NCBI GenBank assembly: GCA_964546995.1
Contig: CAZJKO010000002.1
Coordinates: 3,498 to 67,497, forward strand
Direction of reading: 5' to 3'
DNA length: 64,000 nucleotides
Origin: an uncultured Muribaculaceae bacterium
GTDB lineage: Bacteria > Bacillota_I > Bacilli_A > RF39 > UBA660
Below are positions 5,319 to 54,893 of the stretch, one piece after another. The position numbers and the translations under genes are program-made. Under the pieces are notes generated by a model, which was given only the letters and a program-made list of their open reading frames with translations, did no database searches and was not told the DNA's origin. Position 1 is the first letter of the stretch, and each line of letters opens with the position of its first letter.

Positions 5319-6017
5319 CTAAAATTGATAATACTTACGAATCAAATCAATATCACCTTGACCACAAGGTAGATTGGCAAGAAGAAATCCTTTCAAAAGC
5401 AACCGATAACTTTCGTCAAGTGAAATACCACGAGATGTCAAATAAAACAACTCATCTTGTGTAAACTTACCAATATGAGCCGAATGGTTAGCAACAACTT
5501 GAAATGAATCAACTTGCAAGTTTGGAAGAATAGTAGAAACACCATTTTTCATTTCGATAATCCGATTATTCTGCTCTGAAACACAATCTATTGTACATTT
5601 ATTTATAAAACTATTAATGTAAAATTTCATCGATTTATTTTGTAAATTGACACCGTGGTTTTGTAAAGAGCTAACTGTGCGATCAGCAAGATGATGAACC
5701 GATATCTCATGGGAAATAGCATCCTTCGAAAGCGAAACATAATAATACTGAAGCGAAGCTTCTTCCCCCTCTAAAAACACTTCCGTTTTATCACTACTAT
5801 CACACCCTACATAGATAAATATCAAAGAACTCATCTTTCCTAAATGACAAGTAATGTTCTGCAAAGAACCAGACGAAGCAAACAAAATAATCTTTTTCTC
5901 TTCTCCTTCCTGAAGGAAAAATTCAAACGTATCGTCCTTTGAAGAAGTAAGAGACAAAAAAGAATCTAACGCCTGTTTCTCTTTTACATTTTCTTGTCCT
6001 AATTCTATCTTATGCAT
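5319..6017 (-). CDS. sufD: Fe-S assembly protein SufD (short form, 232 aa)
   Basis: C-terminal SufBD motif ...FYLTSRGISLDESYRLLLKGFL. Placed between sufC and sufS. Much shorter than typical SufD (about 420 aa). Confidence 0.7.
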   Translation of the reverse strand: MHKIELGQENVKEKQALDSFLSLTSSKDDTFEFFLQEGEEKKIILFASSGSLQNITCHLGKMSSLIFIYVGCDSSDKTEVFLEGEEASLQYYYVSLSKDAISHEISVHHLADRTVSSLQNHGVNLQNKSMKFYINSFINKCTIDCVSEQNNRIIEMKNGVSTILPNLQVDSFQVVANHSAHIGKFTQDELFYLTSRGISLDESYRLLLKGFLLANLPCGQGDIDLIRKYYQF

Positions 6018-13542: not shown

Positions 13543-15990
13543 CTATTTATCAATCACGACGACAGCACGAGCACCAAAGCTTGTACCCGTCGTGTTGAAG
13601 TTACTATTCACGCGACCGCCATAATTCACAAACAATGCAATCGACGACGTACTAGAAGAATATGCCGACATGGTCCAATATCCATAATTGTTTCCGTATT
13701 CTCCTCCAGTTACAGTTACTGTTCCCCCATAACTTGTTGAATTATATAAATAATTATTCATCCATGTGGGACAACTTTGAATAGAACTTGTACATCCTAA
13801 TCCTCCTGCTTCTTGCGCTGTAATCATCCGCGCCTTCCCTGTACGCTGTGATAATGTATACAGATTCGCTGTACAACTAACTCCTGAACTATCATATGTA
13901 CATCCTGTAAAAGCATTTGTCTTGAATGTGGTACTCCCAAGCGTATAGGTTTGATCTTTTACATTGGTCCAAGAAGATGTTGCACTCTCCAAAGCTGGTA
14001 ATACCGTTAATGGTCCCTTACTATTATCGGATGCCGCTTCGTACCATGCCGTTTTATAAATCGTATTCTCCCTTTGTTGCATCACTAAAGTATCTCCTTC
14101 ATCAAACATAACATGGAAGTATTTTATTTCACTTGCATTGACTTTGTATTTGATAATGGTTCCTGCTGTATACGTTGTCTGTGGTCCAATTTCTACACAA
14201 GTACTCTCCTCACCTGTTTGACAACTACTTGTATTATATCGATAAACTGCTACAATGTTAGAATTAGCAGGTAAAAGAACTTTAATATTTCCATTTGGAT
14301 GAGATACGGTTCCTCCTACAAATGTTGCACTACTACTTCCTCCTGTAATACTCTTCCAATCGAAACTTCTTCCTGTTTTATTATCGATAGTAACTAATCC
14401 CTTGTTACTTGTTGCACTTTTATAGAACGCATTCGTTCCAATTGATGTAACTGTCGTTGGAATAATAATACTAGTTAGATTATTATTTAGGAACACTTCA
14501 TTTCCTATGGTTGTTGTACCACTAGGTATCACCACACTAACTAAATTGTTATATGCCATCGATTTTGATCCAAGTGTTTTAACACTAGTTGGAATAATGA
14601 CATTTGTCGTTTTTGCTCCTCCATAACTAACTAACACACTCGTATTGTTACTTCCATCACTATTCTTTTGATAGAAGAAAGCATTACTATCAGGGAGTTT
14701 ATTGTTATTGAAAGCAGCATTCCCTAAATAAGTTAATGAGCTTGGTACTTCAACATTCATTAAATTGTTATTAGCAAATGCTTGAGTACCAATTGATGTA
14801 ACTGTCTCCGGGATAACGACACTCGTTATCTTTTTATTTTCAAAAGCATTATTTCCAATCGCTAATACTTCCGTTCCGCCAATTGTATTGGGTATCGTAA
14901 CATCACGAATCGTTTGATAGCCTTCACTATTTCCTTCATAACATAAATAATTACTTATCGTTCCAGTACTTGAATCAAATACAAAACAACTTTCTCTTAC
15001 TGCCGATTCTTTCATTTGTGCTCTTAAACTAGCTTGTAGTGAATAACTATTTGCTTCTTCCTCACTTACACTCTCATCGATCCATAGTCTTAGTTCATAT
15101 TCATTTGTTGTCCCTGCTTCGATCTTTCCTGTATCTAACACTCGTTCTCCTTCTACTAGAGTATTAGATAACGTATCAATGGGCATAGCTTCCTGATTCT
15201 TAACGAGTTGGTATTTTACTTTATCTGAAGGTGCTCCCACACTTCGCATTCTAAACGTACTAACATCATCTAATGTTACAGTATAATTACTTACATCACT
15301 TGATGTATTCTTTAATGAAAAGCGATATGGTTCTAGTTTCACACCTTCTTCATCAGTAGTTGGTACATTTCCATCTTCACTAAAACCAATCTCATTCGTT
15401 CCTAAAATATTCATGTTCAAGTTTTCTTCATTTAATACTGTCTCTGTTACTTGTGTTCCTACTACTCTTAGTTTTCCTCTTAATACTTGGCCCATCACTT
15501 CATTAGAGGCATTTTTATCAATCCATAGTCTTAGATCATAAGTAATCGTTTGTCCACCTTTAATGGTACCATGATCTAAGATTCGATTTGGATTTACCCC
15601 TAAAGCAGAAAGTAAAGCAGTTTTTGTTCTTGTGTCTTTCACGAGATTGTACTTTACCTTATTATCCGCCATTCTTGTTTCATTTTCTTCTAAAGCGATA
15701 TCATCAAAGTAGATTGTATACTCTACATACTCACTTCCTTCATTAATTAAAGTGAAGTGATAGGGATCTAACTTCTCTCCATCTTCGTCCAACATCGGAA
15801 CTGCTTTATCTTCATTGATTCCAATACTATTTTCTTCATCTAATCTTAACGAAAGTGTTCCTGATTTTAATACATTTACTTTGGTTCCATTTAAGGTAAG
15901 TGTGAACCATGCGTAGCTTCCTCCGATCAATAAAACAACTACTAGTAACACACTCATGCAGGTCATGAATATTTTCTTATTCTTTTCCAT
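13543..15990 (-). CDS. large surface protein: SipW-cognate-type signal peptide + two TasA/camelysin-like (M73-like) repeats + BspA-type leucine-rich repeats + Gly/Ser/Thr/Tyr-rich C-terminal domain
   Basis: 815 aa. N-terminus MEKNKKIFMTCMSVLLVVVLLIGGSYAWFTLTLNGTKVNVLKSGTLSL resembles TasA-type signals (..VGGGTWAAFND....ASGTLDL). Two internal repeats share ...KLDPYHFTL.NEGSE...KVKY.LVK...LRLWID.... LRR_5/BspA-like units (IP.TVTSIG..AF..N.L) fill residues about 370-520. RBS GAGGTG. Confidence 0.7.
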   Translation of the reverse strand: MEKNKKIFMTCMSVLLVVVLLIGGSYAWFTLTLNGTKVNVLKSGTLSLRLDEENSIGINEDKAVPMLDEDGEKLDPYHFTLINEGSEYVEYTIYFDDIALEENETRMADNKVKYNLVKDTRTKTALLSALGVNPNRILDHGTIKGGQTITYDLRLWIDKNASNEVMGQVLRGKLRVVGTQVTETVLNEENLNMNILGTNEIGFSEDGNVPTTDEEGVKLEPYRFSLKNTSSDVSNYTVTLDDVSTFRMRSVGAPSDKVKYQLVKNQEAMPIDTLSNTLVEGERVLDTGKIEAGTTNEYELRLWIDESVSEEEANSYSLQASLRAQMKESAVRESCFVFDSSTGTISNYLCYEGNSEGYQTIRDVTIPNTIGGTEVLAIGNNAFENKKITSVVIPETVTSIGTQAFANNNLMNVEVPSSLTYLGNAAFNNNKLPDSNAFFYQKNSDGSNNTSVLVSYGGAKTTNVIIPTSVKTLGSKSMAYNNLVSVVIPSGTTTIGNEVFLNNNLTSIIIPTTVTSIGTNAFYKSATSNKGLVTIDNKTGRSFDWKSITGGSSSATFVGGTVSHPNGNIKVLLPANSNIVAVYRYNTSSCQTGEESTCVEIGPQTTYTAGTIIKYKVNASEIKYFHVMFDEGDTLVMQQRENTIYKTAWYEAASDNSKGPLTVLPALESATSSWTNVKDQTYTLGSTTFKTNAFTGCTYDSSGVSCTANLYTLSQRTGKARMITAQEAGGLGCTSSIQSCPTWMNNYLYNSTSYGGTVTVTGGEYGNNYGYWTMSAYSSSTSSIALFVNYGGRVNSNFNTTGTSFGARAVVVIDK

Positions 15991-16246: not shown

Positions 16247-17554
16247 TTAGAATGGCATCTTCATTTTTCCATTAGAAAACTGCTTCATCATTTTTTTCAT
16301 GTTCTCAAACTGAATCAATAGTTGATTGACTTCTTGAACACTAAGACCACACCCTTTAGCAATTCTCGTTTTTCGACTTGCCTTGATAATATCGGGATTG
16401 CGTCTTTCCTTAGGCGTCATCGATAAAATAATCGCTTCAATATGCCCTAATTTTTTAGGATCGATCGAAACATTGTTTAAACCCATCTTAGAAGCACCTG
16501 GCAACATCTTAAGCAAATTTTCAAGAGGTCCTAATTTGCGAATTTGTTTCATGTTAGTAAGAAAATCTTCTAAATCAAATTTTCCACTTTGCATTTTTCT
16601 TGCTGATTTTTCTGCTTCTTTTTCGTCGATGACTTCCGTTGCTTTTTCCACAAGGGAAACGATATCACCCATACCTAAAATTCTTCCAGCCATACGTTCA
16701 GGATCGAACGGTTCCAATCCATCTAACTTTTCACTAACACCTATCATTTTGATCGGTACATCCGTCAAATGACGAACCGAAAGAGCAACTCCACCTCTCG
16801 TATCTCCATCTAACTTAGTTAAAATAACACCCGTTAATGGTAATTTATCATGAAAACCCGTAATGACATGAATGGCATCTTGCCCCATCATCGAATCGAT
16901 AACAAGCAATACTTCGTGTGGATGAAGAGCTTCGTTCATCTGTTCCAATTCATCCATCAAGGCATCATCGATATGGAGTCTTCCTGCTGTATCGATTAAT
17001 ATATAATCGTATCCGTTTTCTTTTGCTTCCTCGATCGCATGGCGAGCAATCGTAACAGGATCCCCATTTCCTTCCTCGTATACCGGAATTCCAAGCTGAG
17101 ACCCAATCTGCTTCAATTGATCGATTGCAGCGGGACGATAGACATCACACGCGACCAAAAGTGGCTTTTTAGCATGCTTCTTCCGCAAGAAATTCGCAAG
17201 CTTCCCGATCGTTGTCGTCTTTCCACTTCCCTGCAATCCCACTAACATGAGAATAGAAGGTTTAGACGACGTGTGAAGAGGACTCGCTTCCCCACCCAAA
17301 AGATTGGTGAGTTCATCTTTCACAATCTTAACAAACAAATCGCCTGGTCGAATACTCGTCCTAACTTCTTCCCCAAGGGCTTTTTCTTTCACTGTATTCG
17401 TAAATTCTTTTACTACTTTATAGTTGACATCCGCTTCCAAAAGAGCAAGACGAATTTCTCTCATCATATCGGAAATATTTTCTTCCGTAATTTTTCCATA
17501 TCCCTTGATTTTATGAATCGCATTTTGGAGCCGCTCTCCTAAACTTTCAAACAT
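16247..17554 (-). CDS. ffh: signal recognition particle protein Ffh
   Basis: 435 aa. GTPase motifs GLQGSGKTT, DTAGR, TKLDGD. M-domain with a Met-rich C-terminus. Confidence 0.95.
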   Translation of the reverse strand: MFESLGERLQNAIHKIKGYGKITEENISDMMREIRLALLEADVNYKVVKEFTNTVKEKALGEEVRTSIRPGDLFVKIVKDELTNLLGGEASPLHTSSKPSILMLVGLQGSGKTTTIGKLANFLRKKHAKKPLLVACDVYRPAAIDQLKQIGSQLGIPVYEEGNGDPVTIARHAIEEAKENGYDYILIDTAGRLHIDDALMDELEQMNEALHPHEVLLVIDSMMGQDAIHVITGFHDKLPLTGVILTKLDGDTRGGVALSVRHLTDVPIKMIGVSEKLDGLEPFDPERMAGRILGMGDIVSLVEKATEVIDEKEAEKSARKMQSGKFDLEDFLTNMKQIRKLGPLENLLKMLPGASKMGLNNVSIDPKKLGHIEAIILSMTPKERRNPDIIKASRKTRIAKGCGLSVQEVNQLLIQFENMKKMMKQFSNGKMKMPF

Positions 17555-17578: not shown

Positions 17579-19342
17579 TCACGAATGAGTCGTTGTATTC
17601 CAATTTTTCACAACATCACAATTGCCACTCTTAGGTTCTGGTGATGGCATTGCTAACTTTACAATTAAAGGAATCTTAAATGCTCGACCAAAAGCAAGAC
17701 AAGTACCAGATTGTAAACTTTTCTGTTTTTCCACAATCTCTTCTGAAATATTAGGAACCATTTTTTTAATGTATTCGACATCCGTTGGATGGTTCATCTT
17801 AAAAATAAGAAAATTAGAACATTGCGAAATAACTGTATCCGAAAGCTCCACTGGTCTTTGAGAAATAAGTCCTAAAATGAGCCCGTACTTACGTCCTTCT
17901 TTTGCTACTCGATCAAAAATATTGTATCCAATTAAATATTGATCCCGATCATTTTGAATGTAACGATGTGCTTCCTCTACCAAAATATGAAATGGAATCG
18001 AAGCTCGATTAGGAAGTGCCTTCGTAAATTCAAAAAGTAATCTCGTATAAATTTTCGTAATAACTTTCGCAAAATCATCATCGACATCATCTAAATTAAT
18101 ATTGACAATCTGATATTTTTTCCCATCGGTAATAAGTAATGAGGTAAGGTACTGTTCCAACGTAATGTACTGTTTTACCTCAAAGTATTTCGCATAACTT
18201 CCTGTAATCAAAGAATGAAGACGAACCTTAATCGTAACAGCATCCCCATACGTATTTTCATTGCGAAGCCATCCCTCACTAATCAACGTAAAATTGAGTG
18301 CTTTTTCTAAATCAGGTAACGTATAAAAAGATTCCCCTTTTGGTTCGTAATTATCGAATTCTGGTTTAATGAACCCAGAAACATATTCGGTCAAAAGAAC
18401 ACTTTCGGTAAATTGACCAGCAGAATCGATTAAAAAACATTCCCGGAATTTTCGAACGTAACCAATTCCCTGTACCGGTGCTTCTAAATTAAATTCCGGT
18501 GTCGAACAACTAGCTAAAATAGAAAAAACATCGTTACGCTTGTTAGGAGACGTCTGATTAGTATATAAAATGGTCATAATTGCCTTAGCAATTAAATGAT
18601 TCTTATAAAGGTTGGAATCACTTCCCGTTTCCGCAAAAATGCGAGCCAACTTAAGCATTCTTTCGATAATGGGAAGTTGGGAATGCTCTGTTGCAGAAAG
18701 AAGAAGGGCCAAATCACTAGAATTAAGTAACCAAATAGGTAGACGTAATGCTTCTCCAATCCCATCTGTCTCATTCGTTGTATAAAATTTATAATGATAA
18801 TTTGGATTCATTTCGCTAATACTTTGAAAAGCATGATAGTATTCCCCAGAAGAATCGAATAACAACAAATTCGATTTATAAGGAAAGAGTCTCTTATCCA
18901 AAAACATATTTTGAATAATTCTGGCAATGCCACAACTCTTCCCGCTACCACTATTACCAAAAATAGCAAAGTGATTACTAAAGAAAGCATTCACATCCAT
19001 ATAAATAGGGTGATCATTGTAAAATGGACTAACACCCAAAAGCATATTACCCGGCTTGTTCTCCCCAACAATAAGAGGAATTTCTTCTTCTTTAATCACC
19101 CGAATAGAAGCATCGAGTGAAGGTTTACGAATGACTCCTCCAAAAAGAACTCCATTGATAAGTTCTCCTAAAAAACGGACCCTTACAATTCCTTCATTCA
19201 AATCGTCCACTTCTCCTAGTATCTTTTTATCAGAATCCTCAAAAATAACATGTAAATTCATAAGATTGATGGTAAGTGGCACATCGGGATTCAACTTTAC
19301 ATGTGCCAAATGATCACTAATATAAACAATTTTATCAAACAT
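17579..19342 (-). CDS. HerA-like ATPase (HAS-barrel + FtsK/HerA-clade P-loop NTPase, DUF87)
   Basis: 587 aa. N-terminal HAS-barrel-like region, Walker A FGNSGSGKS, Walker B HILVEEAH (DEAH-like), arginine-finger region SQRP. ATG is 3 nt from the upstream GNAT stop. Lies 24 nt upstream of ffh. Confidence 0.7.
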   Translation of the reverse strand: MFDKIVYISDHLAHVKLNPDVPLTINLMNLHVIFEDSDKKILGEVDDLNEGIVRVRFLGELINGVLFGGVIRKPSLDASIRVIKEEEIPLIVGENKPGNMLLGVSPFYNDHPIYMDVNAFFSNHFAIFGNSGSGKSCGIARIIQNMFLDKRLFPYKSNLLLFDSSGEYYHAFQSISEMNPNYHYKFYTTNETDGIGEALRLPIWLLNSSDLALLLSATEHSQLPIIERMLKLARIFAETGSDSNLYKNHLIAKAIMTILYTNQTSPNKRNDVFSILASCSTPEFNLEAPVQGIGYVRKFRECFLIDSAGQFTESVLLTEYVSGFIKPEFDNYEPKGESFYTLPDLEKALNFTLISEGWLRNENTYGDAVTIKVRLHSLITGSYAKYFEVKQYITLEQYLTSLLITDGKKYQIVNINLDDVDDDFAKVITKIYTRLLFEFTKALPNRASIPFHILVEEAHRYIQNDRDQYLIGYNIFDRVAKEGRKYGLILGLISQRPVELSDTVISQCSNFLIFKMNHPTDVEYIKKMVPNISEEIVEKQKSLQSGTCLAFGRAFKIPLIVKLAMPSPEPKSGNCDVVKNWNTTTHS

Positions 19343-19345
19343 AAT

Positions 19346-19858
19346 TTATCTCCCCTTTTTACGTTTATTTTCATAATTTAAATTAAACTTTTCAAAACAA
19401 ATTCGCCCAACACCATTTAACCCTTGAACATACTCATCGGTATCGTAAGTAAATCCCGCTGCCATCGCCGTCTTCATACTAGGATAATTTCCTTGATCGA
19501 TATCGAGTAAAACTTTTTCCACAGGATAAGTGGAAAACAAGTAATCGCTAATTTCTTCTAGTAGTTTACTTGCATACCCTTTCTTTCTTTTTGAAGGAAC
19601 AATCAAGTACTCGAGATAAATCGAATCTCTCTTAAGTCCACCAAGATAAAGATAGCCAATCAATTCATCGTGGAAAGAAACCAAATAAGCCCTTTCAAAA
19701 AAAGAATTGTTTTGATAACTCGATCGATGAAGTCGCTCAGGAATCTGTTTGACAAATCCCTCTTCATTTCCAAGTGATAATTTCTCAAGAAAAGAACGAT
19801 GGTTTTGATTTTCTTGATCAAATACGACTAATTCAAAGGAACCTCCAGGATAGACCAT
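19346..19858 (-). CDS. GNAT-family N-acetyltransferase
   Basis: 170 aa. Acetyl-CoA motif A-like ...LEYLIVPSKRKKGYASKLLEEI.... Starts 16 nt downstream of ylxM. Confidence 0.7.
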   Translation of the reverse strand: MVYPGGSFELVVFDQENQNHRSFLEKLSLGNEEGFVKQIPERLHRSSYQNNSFFERAYLVSFHDELIGYLYLGGLKRDSIYLEYLIVPSKRKKGYASKLLEEISDYLFSTYPVEKVLLDIDQGNYPSMKTAMAAGFTYDTDEYVQGLNGVGRICFEKFNLNYENKRKKGR

Positions 19859-19873
19859 AACACTCCTCCTATA

Positions 19874-20173
19874 TCATAAAATATCCTCGATCGCATCTTT
19901 CAAAGCATCGTCTTTCACAAGTGCTAAAACTTGACAACGCTTCTTGTAACACTTTAACTTTTCTTCATAAAACAAAAGCTTTTCAATCGTAAGTTTTAAC
20001 TGATGATGAATCGCATTGCGACTAACGGCATACTTTTCACTTAACTCACCAAAAGAAAGATTCAAAAAATAGTATCCTTCAAAATACTGACGTTGCTTTT
20101 CCGTCAACAATTCTTGGTAGTAGTCATACAAAGTACCATAGTAAATTGTATCTTCCATTACATACCTCCCCAC
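19874..20173 (-). CDS. ylxM: YlxM/UPF0122 family putative DNA-binding protein (SRP operon protein)
   Basis: 99 aa, ...YFEGYYFLNLSFGELSEKYAVSRNAIHHQLK..., a sigma-70 region-4-like HTH typical of YlxM upstream of ffh. Confidence 0.8.
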   Translation of the reverse strand: MGRYVMEDTIYYGTLYDYYQELLTEKQRQYFEGYYFLNLSFGELSEKYAVSRNAIHHQLKLTIEKLLFYEEKLKCYKKRCQVLALVKDDALKDAIEDIL

Positions 20174-20409
20174 AAACGAGAAAGAAGAACCAAAGCAAGA
20201 ATAATCCCAACTCCACCATATAAATAAGTAAAGACTTTTCTTTTATAAACACGATAGTTGTTGTACGCCATCAAAAACATTGTAACCATAAAACTAGCTT
20301 CCACATAAATAAGAACAGTAGAATCAAAGCAAGACCATCCAAATAAAATCAGGGAACTAACCGTTAAAACGAACTGTAACAATAACCAAATATCCCATTT
20401 TTTCTTCAT
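20158..20409 (-). CDS. small two-TM membrane protein (hypothetical)
   Basis: 83 aa, two hydrophobic helices. Overlaps the ftsY stop (4 nt) and ylxM start (16 nt). Could be spurious. Confidence 0.3.
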   Translation of the reverse strand: MKKKWDIWLLLQFVLTVSSLILFGWSCFDSTVLIYVEASFMVTMFLMAYNNYRVYKRKVFTYLYGGVGIILALVLLSRLWGGM

Positions 20410-21413
20410 AACATCATATCCTTAAACAATCCATAAATGTAGGTCTCGATATCGAACGTTTGCAAATCGTCCTTCCCTTCCCCTAAACCAATGTACTTAA
20501 CAGGAATAGAAACTTCCTCTTTAATCGCCAAAACGATACCTCCCTTAGCAGTACCATCTAACTTGGTAAGAACAATTCCCGTAATATTCGTAATTTCTTT
20601 AAAACTCTTCGCTTGACTAATTCCGTTTTGTCCCGTTGTCGCATCGATCACCAAAAGTGTCTCGTGTGGTGCCCCATCGATCAAGGAAGAAATCACTTTA
20701 TTCATCTTTTCTAACTCTTTCATAAGATTAACTTTATTTTGAAGTCTTCCTGCTGTATCGACCAAAACGACATCAAATTCTTCTTTCAGTGCCATTTGAA
20801 GTCCATCAAAAATAACGCTGGAAGGATCGACCCCTTCTTCTTTACCATAGTAAGAAACACCAACGCGTTCACTCCACTTTTGTAACTGACTCGAAGCACC
20901 TGCTCGAAACGTATCTCCTGCGATCAAAAGAACCCGCTTTCCTTCCTCTTTCATCTTGTAAGCAAGTTTCCCAATAGTCGTCGTTTTTCCAACACCATTG
21001 ACCCCCACAAACAAAATCACCGTAGGACCACTCGCAGCATAATTGATCTTATCGACCAACACCCCATCATCGACATAGATAATAAAAAGTTCATCGACAA
21101 TGATCTCTTGAAGGAAAGAAGGATCATCGATCTTTTCACTCTTAACTCGAGCCCTCAATCGTTCCATAAACTTCATTACCGTAGAAACGCCAATGTCAGC
21201 CATAATCAAAATTTCTTCTAATTCTTCAAAGTATTCTTCTGTAATATGGTGATACCGATCTGTAAGATGACTAAGACGTGATACAAAAGACTCTCTCGTC
21301 TTGGTAAGTCCCTTTTCATACACGGCTACTTCTTTTACTTTTTCTTCATCCAACGCATCCTCTTCTTTTTGAAACATCGTCTTAATCTTATGAAATATTC
21401 CCATCATCATCAC
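20406..21413 (-). CDS. ftsY: signal recognition particle receptor FtsY
   Basis: 335 aa. NG-domain motifs GVNGVGKTTT, DTAGR, TKLDGTAKGG. Confidence 0.9.
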   Translation of the reverse strand: MMMMGIFHKIKTMFQKEEDALDEEKVKEVAVYEKGLTKTRESFVSRLSHLTDRYHHITEEYFEELEEILIMADIGVSTVMKFMERLRARVKSEKIDDPSFLQEIIVDELFIIYVDDGVLVDKINYAASGPTVILFVGVNGVGKTTTIGKLAYKMKEEGKRVLLIAGDTFRAGASSQLQKWSERVGVSYYGKEEGVDPSSVIFDGLQMALKEEFDVVLVDTAGRLQNKVNLMKELEKMNKVISSLIDGAPHETLLVIDATTGQNGISQAKSFKEITNITGIVLTKLDGTAKGGIVLAIKEEVSIPVKYIGLGEGKDDLQTFDIETYIYGLFKDMML

Positions 21414-23280: not shown

Positions 23281-24180
23281 CTATTTATAACGAGTAAATA
23301 TTTTCATCATACCTGTCTCTTTATCGTAATCGTCGATTTTCTTTTGAATAGGATCAAACGATAAATCGAGAGATTGAACATACTGATTCACAGCTTCAGA
23401 CAAGCGATCTGTATCACAAACCAAATAATCGCGAACCTCATCATAACACGAAGATGTTTCAATCTTTTTAATAATATCGTGGTTCATCGGATCGAGCATC
23501 TCAGGAAAAATGTGATCCATTCCTTTCGCAAAGCGATAGTATTTGTCGATGAAGCGATGCCAAAAATGATCGTTCGATAACGGAAAAGTTGTCCCCGTAG
23601 CCAAATTGTAAGCAAGAGCATCACAACACTTAAAGTAATCTTTCAACTCACTAGCATAAACGAGATAATCGTCGTAGAACTCTTCTTCCATAACCTCTTC
23701 GCTAGAAGTAGGTTCATTTGCTTTATAAATCTGAACATCCATATGATAGAAAGGATGAAATCTAGCATAGATCGATTCGTACCCAAGGGCAATAATCTCA
23801 TGTCCCATCTCGTAACGTCCCTCAATAGGATAATCAGAAATTTCCCAAGTAGAATCCATAAGTTCTTCGAGAATAGACGGATCGTCGATCACAATTCGCT
23901 CAACGTCATCCAAACTCATATCGTGAACAAGACCATAAAGAAGAACATCCTCTTCCTCCACATCACCAAAATATCCATTAGAAAGCTTAAACTCACAGGT
24001 GAAAAAATCGATCGCCATTACGCCCATCATAAAATCGAAATGTTCCGAATTCTTTTGCATTCTATTGAGAATATCGTTAAAAACCTCTGGATCTTTCGCA
24101 TTTTTACGATAATAATTTCGATAACGATTAATGATATGACGGATATGTTGCAAAGATGTTTCAACCTTGTATACCATCAA
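23281..24180 (-). CDS. acidic hypothetical protein (299 aa), no recognised domain
   Basis: Long ORF rich in D/E/Y/F, no TM and no known motifs, between rnj and rny. Confidence 0.5.
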   Translation of the reverse strand: MMVYKVETSLQHIRHIINRYRNYYRKNAKDPEVFNDILNRMQKNSEHFDFMMGVMAIDFFTCEFKLSNGYFGDVEEEDVLLYGLVHDMSLDDVERIVIDDPSILEELMDSTWEISDYPIEGRYEMGHEIIALGYESIYARFHPFYHMDVQIYKANEPTSSEEVMEEEFYDDYLVYASELKDYFKCCDALAYNLATGTTFPLSNDHFWHRFIDKYYRFAKGMDHIFPEMLDPMNHDIIKKIETSSCYDEVRDYLVCDTDRLSEAVNQYVQSLDLSFDPIQKKIDDYDKETGMMKIFTRYK

Positions 24181-25951: not shown

Positions 25952-27388
25952 TCAATCACACCGTTTCTCTTCGAAATATGATGCAATCACATCGTAATCA
26001 TTATAAGGAACATTTCCCTCTTTAAGAGCCATGTACCCATCTCTACCTTTTCCTAAAATACAGACAATATCATTTTCTTCCGCCATATCAAAAGCATGAT
26101 AAATTGCTTCCTTACGATCGAGAATACGTTCATAGTGAGTGAAATTAGTCTCACTTACCATATCGTCAATAATCGAATTAACATCTTCGCATCTAGGATC
26201 ATCCATCGTAAAAATAACATGATCCGATAACGATAACGCTTCTTGCCCCATCTTACCACGCTTTTCTTTTTCACGCCCTCCAGCACTACCTAAAACAGTG
26301 ATAATTCTCCCCGTTTTATTCGTAGAAACACAAGTTAAAATTTGATGAATCGCATTAGCTGTATGAGCATAATCTAAAAGGATCGTATAATCTTGCCCAA
26401 AGGAAAGTCTCTCTCCTCTTCCTAAAACAGGATGAAGCAAGGAAACTTTAGATATAACATCGGATAAAGAGTACCCTAAACAACAAAGACAGGCAATCGA
26501 AGCAACCAAATTATAAACATTGTATGTTCCTAAAAAAGGACTCTCTACTTGATAAGTGATTCCTTGATAAACGAGAGAAAGCGTCGTTTTTAAAGCAGTT
26601 TGATTAATAGAGGAAAATTGAAACATAGCATTCTCCCCCATACCATAAGTAACGACCTTGCCCTTAGAATGAGAAAGCATATAAGAATAGTATGGATCAT
26701 CGATATTCAAAACACAATATCCATCTTCTTTCGTTTGTTCAAATAACTTTGCTTTCATCGAAACGTAGTTTTCGATCGTTTTATGAACATTCAAATGATC
26801 CTCTGTAAGATTCGTAAAGACACTAACTGTAAAGGGAACTCTCGCAACACGTCCTGCTAAAATTGCCTCACTCGATACTTCCATACTAAGCATTTTACAT
26901 CCCCGATCGACGAGATGTTTTAAACAAGGATAAAACTCTTCAGGAATAGGTGTAGTATTGTTTGTTTTTTCAAAAAAGTCCCCAAAATAACATCCATTAG
27001 TTCCCAAATATCCAACAGGTAAATAGGAAGACAACAACTGATAAATCATCGTCGACGTCGTCGTCTTTCCATCTGTCCCCGTCACCCCAATCATAGTTAA
27101 AGAAGAAACAGGATCATCATAAAACGCTTCACAACACTGAATCAACGCTTCCTTAGTCGAAGAAACCCGAATAGAAGGAACAGAAGAAGAAACCTCTTTT
27201 TCCACCAAGACAGCACTAGCACCTTTTTGAATGACTTCGTCAATAAACTGATGCCCATCAAACGTCTTACCGGAAATAGCCACAAATAAATCACCTGGAC
27301 CAACTTGCTTCGAATTTGCAGTAATCCCATGAATCATCACATCATATGGACAATCGATAATATCACATAGTTTTTTCATAATACTCAC
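25952..27388 (-). CDS. murE: UDP-N-acetylmuramoyl-tripeptide synthetase MurE
   Basis: 478 aa Mur ligase. P-loop GVTGTDGKTTT, central and C-terminal Mur-ligase domains. Confidence 0.85.
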   Translation of the reverse strand: MSIMKKLCDIIDCPYDVMIHGITANSKQVGPGDLFVAISGKTFDGHQFIDEVIQKGASAVLVEKEVSSSVPSIRVSSTKEALIQCCEAFYDDPVSSLTMIGVTGTDGKTTTSTMIYQLLSSYLPVGYLGTNGCYFGDFFEKTNNTTPIPEEFYPCLKHLVDRGCKMLSMEVSSEAILAGRVARVPFTVSVFTNLTEDHLNVHKTIENYVSMKAKLFEQTKEDGYCVLNIDDPYYSYMLSHSKGKVVTYGMGENAMFQFSSINQTALKTTLSLVYQGITYQVESPFLGTYNVYNLVASIACLCCLGYSLSDVISKVSLLHPVLGRGERLSFGQDYTILLDYAHTANAIHQILTCVSTNKTGRIITVLGSAGGREKEKRGKMGQEALSLSDHVIFTMDDPRCEDVNSIIDDMVSETNFTHYERILDRKEAIYHAFDMAEENDIVCILGKGRDGYMALKEGNVPYNDYDVIASYFEEKRCD

Positions 27389-29817: not shown

Positions 29818-29856
29818 CTCTTCTCACCTCATTTAAAAAACAAAAAATAATATTTT

Positions 29857-30211
29857 ATAAGCCATGTTCTGTTCCTAAAAAATTAGGCGACAAACATTTA
29901 TCTACCAAGCACAATGCTCAGTCTTTGAATCCGTTATCCTTCCTTCATCAAAGCTCCCCTACCAAAATTTGGGTTTCTCGCTCGCGGGGTTTACCACGTT
30001 TCACTTTTTCTTTTCAGAAAACATCGTCACTGCGGCACGTTACGAATGACCACCATATCGAATAGACGTAGGCATCATTTCGCCGTTAGATAATAAATCT
30101 ACCTTAGGTTATGTCTTCCCTAAGCACGAACACTAAGAACATCACAGTTCTTGCGAGTATGGACTTTCCTCTATACCACTAAAGGTGTACAGCGTTTGTC
30201 AAAATATTATT
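29857..30211 (-). ncRNA. rnpB: RNase P RNA, type B (Firmicute type), about 355 nt
   Basis: Minus-strand sequence contains AGAGGAAAGTCCATACTCGCA, TAGTGTTCGTGCTTAGGGAAG, GTGCCGCAGTGACGA, AACGTGGTAAACCCCGCGAGCGAGAAACCCAAATTTTGGTAGGGGA and ACAGAACATGGCTTA, collinear with B. subtilis rnpB. P1 pairs AATAATATTTT (5') with AAAATATTATT (3'). Ends approximate (+/-10 nt). The 5' end abuts or overlaps the gpsB stop codon. Confidence 0.85.
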
Positions 30212-31239: not shown

Positions 31240-31818
31240 ATGAAATACCCAAATGGTTTAAAAAAAAGCAACAATCAGACAATCATCTATGGAAACCGTG
31301 GGATGGATCTAGAAAGTGAAATCAACAATACCAATCAATACTATAGAGAAAACCGACGAGCTTACATTTATAAAAAGCCCACTCCAATTAAAATCACCAA
31401 AGTAGATTATCGACAAGGAATCATTAAAGAAGCTTTTTTTGAATGTCCATCGACGACAGATTACAATGGTATTTATAAAGGGTACTATATCGATTTCGAA
31501 GCAAAGGAAACGTTATCCAAAACGTCATTTCCCTTGAAAAATATCCATCTTCACCAAATAGAACATATGAAAAATGTAAAAGAAGAAGGAGGCATATGCT
31601 TCTTAATTGTTCGTTTCAAAACCCTAAATCAAACATTTTTGTTAAAAGCAGAAGATCTCTTTTTAATAGTCGAAGAACAAGAAAGAAAATCGATTCCAAT
31701 CGACTATTTTAGAAAAAAAGGATATCTCATCAAAGATAAATACAGGCCAACCATCGATTATTTAGAAATAATCGATCAACTATATGGAGGTGAAACAAAT
31801 GCCAAGAACAAAAGGTAA
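31240..31818 (+). CDS. recU: Holliday junction resolvase RecU
   Basis: 192 aa, RecU family (..YYIDFEAKET....FLIVRF..). Immediately upstream of and overlapping ponA, as in B. subtilis recU-ponA. Confidence 0.85.
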   Translation: MKYPNGLKKSNNQTIIYGNRGMDLESEINNTNQYYRENRRAYIYKKPTPIKITKVDYRQGIIKEAFFECPSTTDYNGIYKGYYIDFEAKETLSKTSFPLKNIHLHQIEHMKNVKEEGGICFLIVRFKTLNQTFLLKAEDLFLIVEEQERKSIPIDYFRKKGYLIKDKYRPTIDYLEIIDQLYGGETNAKNKR

Positions 31819-34684
31819 ACAAAACGAACCCAAAAAGAAAACAACACAAAAAAAGAAAACAACGAAAACCAAGAAAAACTTCAAACTAGAATGGAACAAT
31901 CCACGAATAATCGTAGGAATCATTTTACTTTTATTCGCAGTCACAAGTTACGTAACGTTAGGACTTATCGTAACCGCTATTTTAGTAATGGGAATTCTCA
32001 TGATTCTAGGGATTGCAAGACTACTCGATAAAACCAAATCGAAAAAAAGACAACGTAAAATCCTAAATATTATCCTAATCACCGGACTAACACTCGGCAT
32101 ATTAGGATGCATGGCTGTAGGAGGATTCTTTGTATACGTCGTCAAACAAGCCCCTAAATTTGAAATAGAACGATTATCTAAAAAAGAATCGACGATTATT
32201 TACGACATCAACGGAAACGAATATGCCAAATTAGGAACAGAAATGCGCGAAAACATTTCGTATGACGATCTTCCTCAAGTCTTAATCGATGCCATCGTTG
32301 CAACCGAAGACTCAAGATTTTTCCAACACAATGGTTTTGATGCTCCTCGTTTCATCAAAGCAAGTTTAGGTCAAGTCGCAGGCCAAGATGCCGGTGGAGC
32401 TTCGACCTTATCGATGCAAGTAATCAAAAACAGTTTTACGGATACGACCGATCAAGGATTCGAAGGTATCGTCCGTAAATTTACCGATATTTATCTAGCC
32501 ATTTTTAAATTAGAAAAAAATTATACCAAAGAACAGATCATCGAATTTTATGTAAACAACCACTTCCTTGGAGGAAACGTATGGGGAGTCGAACAAGCAA
32601 GTCAAACGTACTTCGGCAAAAGTGTCTCTGACCTCAATTTAAGTGAAGCGGCCATAATCGCTGGTATGTTCCAATCACCAAACTATTATCGGCCAGACAC
32701 CAAACCAGAAAATGCAGAAAAAAGAAGAAACACCGTTCTCTATTTAATGAACAAACATGGTTACATTTCGAAAGAAGAATGGGAAATGGCCAAAAGTATT
32801 CCTGTAAGTTCTCTAACGGGAGGAAGAATTCAAACAAATTCAGAATTCCAAGGATACATCGATACCATTGTCGAAGAACTAGACAAAAAGTATGGCGTCA
32901 ACCCTTATGTAACACCTCTACTTATCTATAGCAATATGGACATGGAAAAACAACGAGGAGTAAACCGTGTCCTATCAGGAGAAGTCTTCAACTGGAAAGA
33001 TGATTTAATTCAATCTGGTGCTGCAGTATTAGACGTACATAGTGGTAAAATTTTAGCAGTAGGAACAGGACGGAATAAAGAAGGAAAAGGAGTAAACATC
33101 TGGAACCTTGCAACCCAAATGAAAAAACAACCAGGATCGACTGCCAAGCCACTCTTCGATTATGGTCCTGGTATGGAATTCAATAATTGGTCTACATACA
33201 CCCTCTTTGATGATACACCATATGCTTACTCGACAGGTCAAACACTTAACAACTGGGATGGCTTCTACATGGGAACACTAACATTAAGACAGGCTCTATC
33301 CCTATCACGTAACGTTCCAGCATTAAAAGCATTCCAACAAGTAGATAACAAAAAAATAATATCGTTCGTCGAATCGCTAGGAATCAAACCAGAAGTCGAT
33401 AATGGACGAATTCATGAAGCACATGCAATCGGGGCTTTTACAGGTGTCACACCACTTGAAATGGCCGCAGCATATCAAGCATTCGCCAACGGAGGATATT
33501 ATTACGAACCACTTTCTGTTAGTAAATTCGTCTATCGAGGAACAGGAGAAACCGTCGAACAACACAGTGAAAAAGTAAAAGTCATGAGCGATTCGACCGC
33601 TTACATGATCACAAGCGTTTTACAAGACGTTCCAAACCATAGATCAGATGTCGCAGGAGTCAACATTGCTGCCAAAACAGGAACGACCAACTACGATGCA
33701 AACAAAGCTCAAGCACTAGGACTTTCATGGGATGCCATCAACGACTCTTGGACAGTTGGATATAACCCCGACATCGTCATAGGAATGTGGTATGGATATG
33801 AAGAATTAAATCAAGAATTAGCAAATCAAGGTTACTACAATCACTTAGATGAAGCTGCCATCAACCGCGATTACCTCTTCCATGCCTATGCCAACCAAAT
33901 CTTTCCAAAAGATAACAAAGACTTCACCATGCCAAGTTCTGTCGTAAAAGTCCCTATTGAAAGAGGAACGAACCCAGCTGCTTTAGCAATTGAAGGAGTC
34001 ACGCCACAAGAAGAAATCGTATACGAATACTTCAAAGCAGGAACAGAACCAACTGAAGCATCACCAAAATATCTAAAATTAGAAACGCCAAGTAACATTA
34101 GAGTCACATATCACGAAAAAGAAAATCAAGTATCGATCAGTTGGAATAGTGTTCCTAAAGCAGGATACAAAGAAGAATACGGAAAACTCCTATACGATAT
34201 CTATTTCGATAACAAACACCTAGGATCGACAGATAGAATAACGTATAGCATCGCAAAACCAAAAACACCTTATGGAACTTATAAAATCGTAGCAAGATAC
34301 GAAAAGTATGACGGAAACAAAAGTGGTGAAGGAATATTTGAATTCAAAAAACCAACAGAAGAAAAACCGACGACACCACCAGATAAAGACCCAACGACGC
34401 CAGAGGATAAAGATCAAATTACCAGCGAATTAATCACCAAAGAATTAACCTTAAAAGTAGGAGATATATTTAAAATGCCGATGGGTCGATCTGCAGTTAC
34501 CGTAAAAGAAAATGGTGTTGATGTAACAAATCAAGCAACGATCACAGGACGTCTCGAAGACGGAAATGGAAACAGTATCGCAGAAATAAATACGACCACG
34601 ACTGGCACATACAACATTGCTTACGACATCAAATATAAAACCTATCAAAAAACACTCCACATGAGTGTAAAAGTAACCAACTAA
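31799..34684 (+). CDS. ponA: bifunctional class A penicillin-binding protein PBP1A (glycosyltransferase + transpeptidase) with C-terminal Ig/Fn3-like extension
   Basis: GT51 motifs (EDSRFFQHNGFD, ...TLSMQVIKN...) and TP motifs (STAKP, SRN, KTGT). ATG at 31799 with RBS GGAGGTG (the ORF track starts 5 codons earlier). Bidirectional terminator AAAAAGTTTTCCATA-acttc-TATGGAAAACTTTTT at 34683..34730. Confidence 0.9.
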   Translation: MPRTKGKQNEPKKKTTQKKKTTKTKKNFKLEWNNPRIIVGIILLLFAVTSYVTLGLIVTAILVMGILMILGIARLLDKTKSKKRQRKILNIILITGLTLGILGCMAVGGFFVYVVKQAPKFEIERLSKKESTIIYDINGNEYAKLGTEMRENISYDDLPQVLIDAIVATEDSRFFQHNGFDAPRFIKASLGQVAGQDAGGASTLSMQVIKNSFTDTTDQGFEGIVRKFTDIYLAIFKLEKNYTKEQIIEFYVNNHFLGGNVWGVEQASQTYFGKSVSDLNLSEAAIIAGMFQSPNYYRPDTKPENAEKRRNTVLYLMNKHGYISKEEWEMAKSIPVSSLTGGRIQTNSEFQGYIDTIVEELDKKYGVNPYVTPLLIYSNMDMEKQRGVNRVLSGEVFNWKDDLIQSGAAVLDVHSGKILAVGTGRNKEGKGVNIWNLATQMKKQPGSTAKPLFDYGPGMEFNNWSTYTLFDDTPYAYSTGQTLNNWDGFYMGTLTLRQALSLSRNVPALKAFQQVDNKKIISFVESLGIKPEVDNGRIHEAHAIGAFTGVTPLEMAAAYQAFANGGYYYEPLSVSKFVYRGTGETVEQHSEKVKVMSDSTAYMITSVLQDVPNHRSDVAGVNIAAKTGTTNYDANKAQALGLSWDAINDSWTVGYNPDIVIGMWYGYEELNQELANQGYYNHLDEAAINRDYLFHAYANQIFPKDNKDFTMPSSVVKVPIERGTNPAALAIEGVTPQEEIVYEYFKAGTEPTEASPKYLKLETPSNIRVTYHEKENQVSISWNSVPKAGYKEEYGKLLYDIYFDNKHLGSTDRITYSIAKPKTPYGTYKIVARYEKYDGNKSGEGIFEFKKPTEEKPTTPPDKDPTTPEDKDQITSELITKELTLKVGDIFKMPMGRSAVTVKENGVDVTNQATITGRLEDGNGNSIAEINTTTTGTYNIAYDIKYKTYQKTLHMSVKVTN

Positions 34685-40955: not shown

Positions 40956-41063
40956 AATTCTCGGCTCCCGAGAATTTTTTTATGCAAGAAACCACGATTT
41001 TTCATCATAACAAGAAATAGCATCACATAAAGTTAAATGAAATCAAAAGAAAAGGTGAAGAAT

Positions 41064-42539
41064 ATGGAAAAATATGATATTATCAAAAACATCGCAGAAC
41101 GAACAGGAGGAGATATCTACTTAGGCGTCGTCGGTGCTGTTCGCACTGGAAAAAGTACCTTCATAAAAAAAGTGATCGAAACATTAGTCGTTCCAAACAT
41201 CGAAGATGAATACGAACGAAAAAGAGCCCTCGATGAAATTCCTCAAAGTGCCGCAGGAAAAACGATTATGACAACGGAACCAAAATTTGTACCTAACCAA
41301 GCAGCCAAAATCAATATCGACGACTTCTCATGTAACATTAGATTGATCGATTGTGTCGGTTACATGATTGATAATGCCAAAGGAGCAGAAGACGAAAATG
41401 GTCCCCGTATGGTCAAAACACCATGGTATGATGATGAAATACCATTCGTCGAAGCTGCCGAACTAGGAACCGAAAAAGTCATCAAAGATCATTCAACGAT
41501 CGGTATTGTCGTAACGACAGATGGATCAATCGGGGAATTTAATAGAAAAGACTACATCGATTCAGAACAACGAGTCATCGAAGAATTAAAAGAAATAGGA
41601 AAACCATTTATCGTCTTGTTAAACTCAACGCATCCTACCTTACCAGAAACAGAACGCTTAGCAGAATCACTAAAAGAAGAACACAACATCCCAGTCATCC
41701 CGATCAGCATTGAAGCCATGAACGAAAAAGATATGTATAATATCTTAAGAGAAGCTCTCTACGAATTCCCTGTACTAGAAGTAAAAGTGAACATGCCAGA
41801 ATGGATTGCCATTCTAAACCCAACCCATAAAGTAAAAAAAGTCTATATCGATGCCATTAAAGAAAGTGTAACGGAAGTAGATAAATTGAGAGATATCGAA
41901 AATATTACCAAACATTTCTTAAATAACGAATGCATTGAAAAAGCTTATTTATCGGAAGTAAATCCTGCAACAGGAGAAGTCATCGTAACCTTAACAGCAC
42001 CAGCAGATCTATATAACCAAGTCTTAACAGACATCATTAAAATCGATGTCAAAAACAAAGCAGAATTACTATCCCTATTCCAAGAATATAACGAAGCAAA
42101 ACGAGAGTACGATCAAGTAAAATATGCCTTAAAAATGGTCAAACAAACAGGATATGGTGTTGCAACGCCTACCCTATCAGATATGAAATTAGATACACCA
42201 GAAATCACGAAACAAGGCACAAGATATGGAGTAAAACTAAAAGCTGTAGCACCTAGCATCCACATGATTCGAGTCGACGTCCAAAGTACTTTCGAACCGA
42301 TCATTGGAAGCGAATTACAAAGTAAAGAACTAATCAATTATTTAATGAAAGATTATGAAACAGAACCAGACAACATTTGGAAAAGCGAAATTTTTGGTCG
42401 CAGTCTAGATGTCATTGTCCAAGAAGGAATTCAATCGAAAATCAACATGATGCCAGACAACATAAGATATAAATTACAACAAACCCTAACTAAAGTAGTG
42501 AACAAAGGATCAAACAACATGATAGCCATCGTTCTATAA
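41064..42539 (+). CDS. spoIVA: stage IV sporulation protein A (spore coat morphogenetic ATPase)
   Basis: MEKYDIIKNIAERTGGDIYLGVVGAVRTGKSTFIKK... nearly identical to the B. subtilis SpoIVA N-terminus, with Walker A. 492 aa from the ATG at 41064 (RBS AAAGGTGAAG). Terminator GATAGA-gaaa-TCTATC + T7 at 42540..42563. Confidence 0.9.
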   Translation: MEKYDIIKNIAERTGGDIYLGVVGAVRTGKSTFIKKVIETLVVPNIEDEYERKRALDEIPQSAAGKTIMTTEPKFVPNQAAKINIDDFSCNIRLIDCVGYMIDNAKGAEDENGPRMVKTPWYDDEIPFVEAAELGTEKVIKDHSTIGIVVTTDGSIGEFNRKDYIDSEQRVIEELKEIGKPFIVLLNSTHPTLPETERLAESLKEEHNIPVIPISIEAMNEKDMYNILREALYEFPVLEVKVNMPEWIAILNPTHKVKKVYIDAIKESVTEVDKLRDIENITKHFLNNECIEKAYLSEVNPATGEVIVTLTAPADLYNQVLTDIIKIDVKNKAELLSLFQEYNEAKREYDQVKYALKMVKQTGYGVATPTLSDMKLDTPEITKQGTRYGVKLKAVAPSIHMIRVDVQSTFEPIIGSELQSKELINYLMKDYETEPDNIWKSEIFGRSLDVIVQEGIQSKINMMPDNIRYKLQQTLTKVVNKGSNNMIAIVL

Positions 42540-54224: not shown

Positions 54225-54893
54225 TTAAAAAGCAGAAATTGTTTTTACAAGTACCCGACTGCGATAAAACGTCTTCTTATCGATGTGATACGTCGAAGGA
54301 ATTGCTTGAACCGAATCATACTCAGTATGATTTCTCTCATTAAAAAGTCTCACAAAGAGTGCATCACTATAATACTGTGAAAAAGCCAAATGATCCCCTT
54401 CCATGTAATTGTACCGAATCTCGATATCCACTTTTTCACGAGAAGATTCCTTCATAGGATCAAGTTGCCAACTACTCGCTTTATAAATATAATAATAGCG
54501 ATCACTACTACGTTGCTTATAGATAACATAATCTCCACACTGTAATGTAAAAAGATGATTGTTTGTTAAATCGTCAAGTAAAACCATTGTTTCATAACGA
54601 TTACACTGTTCCCGATTCAAAAAAGGATTTTCAAGATCGTCGAGAACTTGATGTTGAAACAATTCATGTAAATAGACAATATTGTCGACTGCCGGATTCG
54701 TAAGTTCATAAGTACTGGCGTTAAATAGTAACGTCGATACATGATACTTCAACAGATGAAACTTCTCATCTTGACTATGATTGACCGCAATCTTCAAAAT
54801 GATCGCTGTCAAAATAATCAACACGACCATAATAGACAAAAATTCACTAGCACTGTATCCAAAACGCCCCATTCTCTTCTTTTTATTTTTCAT
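54225..54893 (-). CDS. hypothetical protein with prepilin-type (type IV pilin-like) N-terminal leader and hydrophobic segment
   Basis: MKNKKKRMGRFG|YSASEFLSIMVVLIILTAIIL: basic leader, Gly at -1, aromatic +1, Glu at +5, then a 20-aa hydrophobic helix, followed by a 180-aa soluble domain. Overlaps the ezrA stop by 11 nt. Confidence 0.45.
   Translation of the reverse strand: MKNKKKRMGRFGYSASEFLSIMVVLIILTAIILKIAVNHSQDEKFHLLKYHVSTLLFNASTYELTNPAVDNIVYLHELFQHQVLDDLENPFLNREQCNRYETMVLLDDLTNNHLFTLQCGDYVIYKQRSSDRYYYIYKASSWQLDPMKESSREKVDIEIRYNYMEGDHLAFSQYYSDALFVRLFNERNHTEYDSVQAIPSTYHIDKKTFYRSRVLVKTISAF

Follow-up and report, generated by a model that had tools for sequence, protein, structure and literature searches.

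Results

Organization of the SRP operon

In a 64,000-nucleotide stretch of contig CAZJKO010000002.1 (in the following termed the window) the operon of the signal recognition particle (SRP) contains two extra genes between ylxM and ffh, which encode a GNAT acetyltransferase and a HerA-type P-loop ATPase and are the subject of this work. On the minus strand the gene order is ftsY (20406-21413; SRP54 and SRP54_N domains according to Pfam), a hydrophobic open reading frame (ORF) of 83 amino acids (aa) predicted to encode a membrane protein (20158-20409), ylxM (19874-20173; PF04297 at 76 bits and NCBIfam YlxM at 80 bits, the latter at the cut-off), the 170-aa GNAT gene (19346-19858; assigned via Pfam), the 587-aa, tail-less HerA gene (17579-19342; assigned via Pfam, PADLOC, PDB and fold) and ffh (16247-17554; SRP54_N, SRP54 and SRP_SPB domains). 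The canonical junction of ylxM followed by ffh, which is present in nine related loci, is interrupted in the window by both genes, as claimed in a preliminary description of this DNA and corroborated here by the ORFs and by the Pfam and NCBIfam assignments of the neighbouring genes.

The genes are separated by 15 nt (ylxM-GNAT), 3 nt (GNAT-HerA) and 24 nt (HerA-ffh); the latter two values agree with the preliminary description, which had given 16 nt for the first gap. Shine-Dalgarno sites precede the starts of GNAT, HerA and ffh (AGGAGG, AAGGGGAGA and GAGGAGG, respectively). A promoter consensus scan of the minus strand from ftsY to ffh gave no match above 9/12, and a scan for terminator-like sites found none between the genes of this region; the sole minus-strand match lies inside the GNAT ORF, and the match counts were not above those of shuffled sequences. 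With respect to the tight gaps, the co-transcription that had been suggested for these genes is likely. The GC content of the GNAT and HerA genes (0.34-0.37), whose comparison with the neighbouring genes had been recommended, is the same as that of the neighbours, and Rfam and tRNA scans gave nothing at or close to the locus.

Identification of the HerA-type ATPase

The 587-aa protein matches DUF87 (PF01935) at 4e-19 with 70 bits against a cut-off of 23.2 in Pfam. Its best PADLOC match is PDLC04102 (5e-109, 364 bits, residues 93-584), and ten PADLOC HerA models match at E < 1e-37. HerA chains of the PDB were matched by phmmer at 1.6e-45 to 1e-21, TdpA more weakly at 4e-9. Around the P-loop weak Pfam matches to FtsK_SpoIIIE and TrwB were found, that to FtsK_SpoIIIE being sub-threshold (19 bits against a cut-off of 24), and the NCBIfam HerA_antiphage models reached 145-165 bits against cut-offs of 800-850. 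The AlphaFold2 (AF2) model (predicted local distance difference test, pLDDT, 88; predicted template modelling score, pTM, 0.86) consists of an N-terminal barrel, a RecA-like core and a helical insert, and Foldseek aligned it with DUF4297-HerA, SIR2-HerA and Sulfolobus HerA (E values of 1e-29 to 1e-22) and with Thermococcus HerA-NurA, the TM scores to HerA structures being 0.55-0.71. These alignments extend over 593-684 columns for a 587-aa query, which suggests near-full-length coverage, the start and end of the query being absent from the output.

Within the protein, residues 1-82 (19097..19342, minus strand as for all following positions) form a HAS-barrel-like beta-barrel with seven strands in the model, assessed as a part of the whole-protein match. 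The translation contains a Walker A motif GNSGSGKS (residues 129-136; 18935..18958), a Walker B motif HILVEEAH (residues 452-459; 17966..17989) and the segments GRKYG (483-487) and SQRP (494-497), which make up the sensor region (17852..17896) and which, by analogy with HerA and FtsK, may provide the arginine finger. In 20 family members G129, G132, G134 and K135 of Walker A, A458 and H459 of Walker B, and G483, K485, G487, Q495 and P497 of the sensor region are invariant, while E456 and R484 are nearly invariant; all catalytic motifs are retained in the most diverged operon orthologues. The helical insertion domain between the Walker motifs (residues ~208-400; 18143..18721, delimited by the secondary structure of the model) appears, to judge from the long fold matches, to correspond to the helical insert carried by anti-phage HerA structures. 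The earlier assignment of this protein to the HerA/FtsK clade is thus confirmed by profile, sequence and fold (barrel, DUF87 core, Walker A and B, SQRP); in the profile search that had been proposed for this purpose DUF87 was recovered by Pfam, and the barrel is seen in the AF2 model.

Conservation, descent and selection of HerA

Relatives were collected with one genome per species, which yielded 172 relatives, of which the best 80 (75-86% identical to the window HerA) were examined. Because these loci were selected by HerA similarity, a second sample of 80 metagenome loci was anchored on ffh (Ffh 77-83% identical). The best 80 genome loci belong to metagenome-assembled genomes of uncultured gut 'Bacilli' or 'Tenericutes', among them Mycoplasma sp. 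CAG:877, Clostridium sp. CAG:451, Ca. Onthousia and Ca. Faecimonas, the last two being filed as Bacilli incertae sedis. In these species-level genome loci ylxM is found immediately upstream of HerA in 57 of 80 cases, with a gap of at most 254 nt in 53 of the 57, and ffh follows downstream in at least 46 of them. In the ffh-anchored sample a same-strand HerA lies upstream of ffh in 55 of 80 loci; 16 further loci have at most 1.3 kb of upstream sequence with no ylxM visible and are too short to decide. The 587-aa protein is consequently a resident of the operon between ylxM and ffh in most relatives, a situation that the preliminary description had itself named as one that would speak against its proposal. 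The comparison of synteny suggested there supported a lineage-specific insertion for the GNAT gene; for HerA it revealed an old, vertically inherited member of the operon, and no joint insertion of both.

A few other species have unrelated genes between ylxM and HerA (for HD-domain, HIT-like and membrane proteins), so that this slot evidently tolerates insertions. Their products, together with an oppositely oriented ORF of 285 aa, were considered as candidates for a conserved partner of HerA, as were a ~410-aa protein, fmt and a membrane protein in the gap between HerA and ffh; all were rejected, since they are inconsistent across lineages and have no homologue in the window. In one sub-lineage (L007 8095-10966, L009, L035, L060 and L065) HerA is followed by the ~410-aa protein with a C-terminal membrane anchor, fmt, a ~240-aa membrane protein and then ffh. 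In two species with a ~70-nt gap between ylxM and HerA, consensus-like promoter sequences (TTGTCA, 17 nt, TATAAT, or an extended -10) stand directly upstream of HerA (L035 ~5940-6000 and L017 ~290-340), and HerA may have its own promoter in such species, as judged from these sequences.

The pairwise distances of HerA and Ffh across 50 loci correlate with a Mantel r of 0.86, which was reached in 0 of 2000 permutations, at a rate ratio of 1.1; HerA is inherited vertically. The ratio of non-synonymous to synonymous substitution rates (dN/dS) between the window and L085 amounts to 0.024 for HerA, 0.026 for ffh and 0.032 for rny, as compared to 0.084 for ftsY, 0.093 for ylxM and 0.158 for GNAT. Within the window's own clade HerA thereby matches Ffh in constraint. 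The median identities to the window in the ffh-anchored sample are 70.5% (53-79) for HerA, 71.1% for FtsY, 74.2% for RNase J, 75.0% for RNase Y, 80.7% (range 77-83) for Ffh and 48.4% for YlxM. The notion that HerA equals Ffh in conservation throughout the group was rejected, because the values of 78.5% and 80% in the first sample were biased by the selection of loci by HerA similarity and changed to the 70.5% and 80.7% given above upon anchoring on ffh.

Taken together, we regard the ATPase as probably a solo HerA with a housekeeping role, which is fixed in the operon and vertically inherited, and the GNAT gene as a separate, later insertion that does not form a paired system with it.

Wider HerA subfamily and relation to defence proteins

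Full-length relatives with 41-46% identity are located in core-genome contexts. At 44-46% identity HerA stands in the order PP2C-HerA-sepF-divIVA...ileS, where the classical cluster of division genes ends (L089 6070-9057, also L088, L090 and L091). In L186 (3214-4965, 41% identical) it lies between rpmH-rnpA-yidC-jag and dnaA-dnaN, i.e. at the replication origin (oriC), and in L097 (4331-7172), L098 and L099 (41% identical) it lies 44 nt downstream of rmuC, the gene of a predicted recombination nuclease; in analogy to HerA-NurA, the latter arrangement may represent a HerA-nuclease pairing. One further member of the subfamily adjoins an LtaS-like gene. No defence island or toxin, as had been considered in the preliminary description, was found in the core-genome neighbourhoods examined for this subfamily. 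Genes for SIR2, DUF4297, NurA or other effectors are absent from ~170 related neighbourhoods, the neighbourhoods examined contain no Mre11 or Rad50 gene either, and the 64-kb window contains no homologue of SIR2, RmuC, PP2C, SepF or DivIVA.

The solo HerA could nevertheless act against phages, either as a self-contained sensor or effector or as an ATPase whose effector is encoded elsewhere, and be parked in a housekeeping operon. The closest sequence relatives of known role are indeed defence proteins. The best profile of the window HerA, PDLC04102, is matched over its full length (residues 3-623, 576 bits) by P0138, a 34% identical protein that directly follows a SIR2 gene in a defence island, no other such island having been seen. 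On plasmids the best relatives reach ~30% identity, and the one inspected, from Listeria, is encoded as a pair of SIR2 and DUF87. On a neighbour-joining tree all solo HerAs form one clade with the SIR2-linked HerAs as sister, a placement that is provisional as the tree has no bootstrap values, and the losses indicated for one sub-lineage (see Discussion) would also be in accordance with a defence function. Against this, a patchy distribution over mobile elements and defence islands was not observed. The fixed position, the vertical inheritance and a dN/dS equal to that of ffh are unlike defence genes, close copies on plasmids or phages were not found (the phage collection contained no full-length relative at all), no effector accompanies HerA in the neighbourhoods or the window, and the distant members reside at oriC or beside sepF-divIVA. 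Furthermore, the window HerA and the other solo members match PDLC04102 only from residue ~50-90 onward, so that the N-terminal 50-90 residues do not correspond to the SIR2-type profile, and the solo proteins are devoid of the short N-terminal insertions seen in SIR2-linked sequences. In published structures it is the N-terminal part of HerA that holds the partners in HerA complexes. We therefore consider an anti-phage function improbable and retain the housekeeping role as the preferred explanation.

C-terminal tails of the HerA orthologues

Most HerA orthologues comprise 650-940 aa owing to a low-complexity C-terminal extension of 60-360 aa (L003-L080 and others; for example L013 6001-8250 and L035 6001-8166), which terminates in either of two short conserved peptides, ..PIPEIN..ETL or ..G(T/S)PL(V/I)(S/T)(I/L)TP... 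Such a tail could be a flexible tether whose terminal peptide docks to a partner. It is absent from the window HerA and from its GNAT-bearing relatives, and also from several GNAT-less lineages (L001, L002, L008, L105, L137 and others), which indicates that the loss of the tail is not linked to the GNAT gene. Orthologues of 714-794 aa had been considered as possible fusions of GNAT and HerA; this was rejected, as their additional length is the low-complexity tail.

The GNAT gene

The classification of the 170-aa protein as a GNAT, already made in the preliminary description, holds, since the Pfam models Acetyltransf_3, _4 and _1 all score above their gathering thresholds and the AF2 model (pLDDT 77) has its best Foldseek matches in SpeG, PseH and RimL (TM 0.57-0.64). 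The acetyl-CoA motif RKKGYA (R-x-x-G-x-A) was located in the translation at residues 91-96 (19571-19588, minus strand), and R91 and G94 are invariant in 6 homologues. The scores against NCBIfam equivalogs are all far below the cut-offs (rimI 17.5 bits against 86.4; spermidine acetyltransferase 14.2 against 218), so that no substrate can be assigned, and PADLOC gave no match.

GNAT is restricted to one small group of lineages. Among 5.8e9 proteins only three close clusters were found (99, 76 and 49% identity), all in the order ylxM-GNAT-HerA-ffh, and a profile search added only three clusters with 37-38% identity. None of the 160 related loci (80 genome and 80 ffh-anchored loci) contains the gene. 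The GNAT-bearing lineages (the window, L085 and L084) cluster on a crude neighbour-joining tree of Ffh, and where the adjacent HerA is 97% and 86% identical, GNAT is 76% and 49% identical, respectively. More distant GNAT relatives follow a HAD hydrolase, near mscL and recD2, and are in turn followed by proteins unrelated to HerA; two of these (907 aa and 278 aa) were examined as potential HerA-like proteins and rejected. The co-occurrence analysis that had been recommended thus found GNAT next to HerA in three close lineages only, which largely amounts to the second situation that the preliminary description had named as counter-evidence, a lack of joint occurrence elsewhere.

The junction of both genes is informative about the order of events. 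The 3' end of GNAT (KKGR and stop; 19343..19365, minus strand, AAAAAGGGGAGATAAATTATG in the window sequence) overlaps the Shine-Dalgarno site of HerA, the last GNAT codons running through AAAGGGGAGA. In the GNAT-less loci L001 and L002 the ribosome-binding site of HerA, TAAAAAGGGAGA..ATTATG, directly follows the ylxM stop. The window junction has retained this ribosome-binding site, which indicates that GNAT landed upstream of a pre-existing HerA start as a clade-specific insertion. With a dN/dS of 0.16-0.24, about six times (5-7) that of HerA, GNAT is a functional gene under purifying selection but much looser constraint, as follows from the comparison of 0.158 for GNAT with 0.024 for HerA.

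These data bear directly on the two-gene system proposed in the preliminary description, in which GNAT and HerA would constitute a functional module (for defence, toxin-like, or an acetylation-coupled translocase) that entered the SRP operon as one cassette. In each of the three GNAT lineages only 0-3 nt separate the stop of GNAT from the start of HerA, which makes co-transcription, and possibly translational coupling, likely; moreover, GNAT is under purifying selection and the adjacency has been kept since the ancestor of the clade. However, more than 100 loci have HerA in this position and no GNAT, which excludes a joint insertion and places HerA first, GNAT evolves several-fold faster by dN/dS and has no counterpart among the defence profiles, its relatives elsewhere do not stand beside HerA, and other lineages carry unrelated cargo in the very same slot. 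The two-gene system is consequently not upheld, and we judge a GNAT-HerA module to be very improbable. The separate insertion of GNAT next to a resident solo HerA remains our explanation of the arrangement.

Host and further features of the window

The window encodes SpoIVA (41037-42539, plus strand), a class A penicillin-binding protein (31784-34684, plus strand), EzrA (54883-56595, minus strand) and a Mur ligase (25952-27388, minus strand), together with RecA and RecX. The host is a walled, probably spore-forming member of the Bacillota, though its relatives are labelled 'Tenericutes' or 'Mycoplasma sp.' in public records. Since a walled spore-former is expected to keep SpoIIIE, HerA is not assumed to replace FtsK or SpoIIIE.

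The 83-aa membrane ORF overlaps ftsY and ylxM by a few bases. Of the first 80 loci, 23 gave a tblastn match at the corresponding position, and 15 of these matches are full-length with 28-42% identity; no Pfam or NCBIfam family was matched. With this ORF the SRP operon has a second addition that is specific to the lineage. The place directly after ffh, which in Firmicutes is usually that of rpsP, is taken by the gene of an 815-aa protein (13543-15990, minus strand), which combines BspA-type leucine-rich repeats with an N-terminal region resembling camelysin and has weak homologues near the operon in several relatives. Between rnj and rny lies the gene of a 299-aa protein (23281-24180, minus strand) without Pfam match, which is conserved in the closest relatives (296-303 aa, L081 and L085). 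The window also contains a class B RNase P RNA (29853-30207, minus strand, 276 bits) and a T-box leader (60188-60377, minus strand, 111 bits).

Discussion

HerA proteins are hexameric ring translocases, and the bacterial members are currently understood either as partners of NurA in end resection or as ATPase scaffolds of abortive-infection systems (SIR2-HerA, DUF4297-HerA). For the protein described here we propose that HerA became fixed between ylxM and ffh before a broad group of uncultured gut Bacilli diversified from an ancestor; it has since been inherited vertically under purifying selection comparable to that on Ffh and FtsY. It would form a hexameric ring that moves along or remodels nucleic acid at the expense of ATP, most likely double-stranded DNA, and would do so without an adjacent effector in a housekeeping process, for example in the handling of the chromosome during replication, division or recombination. 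The long disordered C-terminal tail of most orthologues could dock the ring to a partner, a feature that the tail-less window copy would not share. GNAT would have been inserted once, in the ancestor of the small clade of the window, just upstream of the retained ribosome-binding site of HerA, and would be co-transcribed with HerA only because of the position at which it landed.

Several observations weigh against this proposal and have to be set against it. In nine loci of the ffh-anchored sample (L136, L146, L150, L152-L154, L157, L159 and L166; Ffh 80-82% identical) ylxM directly abuts ffh and no HerA lies between the two. On the crude Ffh tree these loci branch within the HerA-bearing lineages, namely in the sub-lineage with the most diverged HerA, which suggests repeated loss or relocation. 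As HerA can be lost or relocated, it is unlikely to be strictly essential. Both the Ffh and the HerA tree are neighbour-joining trees without bootstrap support. Across the whole group the constraint on HerA is FtsY-like and not Ffh-like. In one operon orthologue (P0126/P0275), which is 46% identical and occupies the same ftsY-x-ylxM-HerA-ffh position, Walker B is degenerate (IDNAH) and SQRP is lost, and ATP hydrolysis is probably dispensable at least in this case, as far as the motifs tell. The DNA-translocase role is drawn from analogy with the family, and hints at the function come from the recurrent neighbours (division genes, oriC, rmuC) only. Hence, HerA is strongly constrained in most lineages, yet not indispensable everywhere.

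A 943-aa orthologue in L185 (8001-10832), at the ftsY-x-ylxM-HerA-ffh position, carries the IDNAH Walker B, GEVS in place of SQRP and a very long tail; its sequence indicates that it may be an ATPase-dead structural form.

That the ATPase instead serves the SRP or membrane targeting as a secretion or translocation motor of the FtsK clade, like VirD4, VirB4 and EssC, would agree with its operon membership beside ftsY, ylxM and ffh across a broad clade, with the small membrane ORF in the operon and with the weak FtsK_SpoIIIE and TrwB matches around the P-loop, but is most improbable, given that no transmembrane segment or nearby secretion-system gene is present, that the subfamily elsewhere occurs in contexts other than the SRP operon (sepF-divIVA, oriC, rmuC), that the fold matches are DNA-acting HerAs and that the promoter-like sequences upstream of HerA in L035 and L017 would uncouple it from ftsY-ylxM.

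Beyond the housekeeping role itself, the relatedness of the solo HerAs to SIR2-HerA leads to a more specific and much more tentative scenario. Conceivably, though we would not rely on it, a SIR2-associated anti-phage HerA lost its effector, remodelled its N-terminal face and was domesticated as a core motor of chromosome maintenance or division in several lineages of uncultured gut Bacilli with small genomes. In the same speculative vein, the domesticated protein would have settled in the SRP operon, beside sepF-divIVA or at oriC, and would in most species be equipped with an FtsK-like disordered linker and a docking peptide. If true, no HerA subfamily that serves housekeeping without a partner would have been described in Bacillota before, and an immune component would have been exapted for cell biology, or the recruitment would have taken place in reverse.

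The lack of an adjacent partner, the fixation in a housekeeping operon and the Ffh-like slow evolution within the clade of the window point to a third, cell-biological use of the HerA motor, in gut Bacilli that, though uncultured, form a large and abundant group. Nothing relevant turned up in literature searches on a solo HerA of the SRP operon, on one in Mollicutes or on orphan HerAs. As a practical warning, profiles of defence finders flag the solo HerA strongly (PADLOC 5e-109) despite its genomic behaviour as a core gene. The pairing of GNAT and HerA, in turn, would be a local accident of insertion and not a new two-gene system.

Comparison with known systems

The window GNAT is alike to SpeG, RimL and PseH in fold, size and acetyl-CoA motif; it differs from them in sequence, with an identity of 15-20%, and in the lack of an equivalog-level score.

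For HerA the closest sequence family is SIR2-HerA (Gao system 19 / Nezha), which has the same three-part architecture and catalytic motifs (Foldseek E ~1e-24 to 1e-26). In contrast to this system, the window HerA has no adjacent SIR2, shares only ~30-34% identity with SIR2-linked members, has N-terminal 50-90 residues that the profile does not cover, and is encoded by a chromosomal, syntenic gene that descends vertically and is strongly constrained by purifying selection. Both by structure and by PDB sequence the top matches were to DUF4297-HerA (PDB 9c1m, 8xau, 8ziq; Foldseek 1.8e-29, phmmer 1.6e-45), from which the window HerA differs by an identity of ~21% and by the absence of an adjoining DUF4297/Cap4-like nuclease. 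HerA-NurA of end resection (PDB 4d2i, 9x1l; Deinococcus, PMC9960219) exhibits the same fold and motifs and a housekeeping role in DNA repair, similar to the kind of role proposed here; the window, however, has no NurA, Mre11 or Rad50 nearby, the corresponding NCBIfam equivalogs score 111 and 92 bits against 800 and 970, and the identity is ~17%.

FtsK, SpoIIIE and SftA belong to the same ASCE ring-translocase superfamily as the window HerA. The contexts of the solo HerAs (sepF-divIVA, oriC) as well as the low-complexity linker and terminal peptide of most orthologues recall these division-site DNA pumps, although the window HerA has neither a membrane anchor nor a gamma domain. A non-defence role is on record for TdtA of Thermus thermophilus, a HerA-like ATPase of DNA donation (transjugation) (PMC5365140). 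As far as the description of TdtA considered here goes, that protein is set apart by its part in DNA transfer from cell to cell, whereas the HerA of the window is a fixed gene of a core operon.

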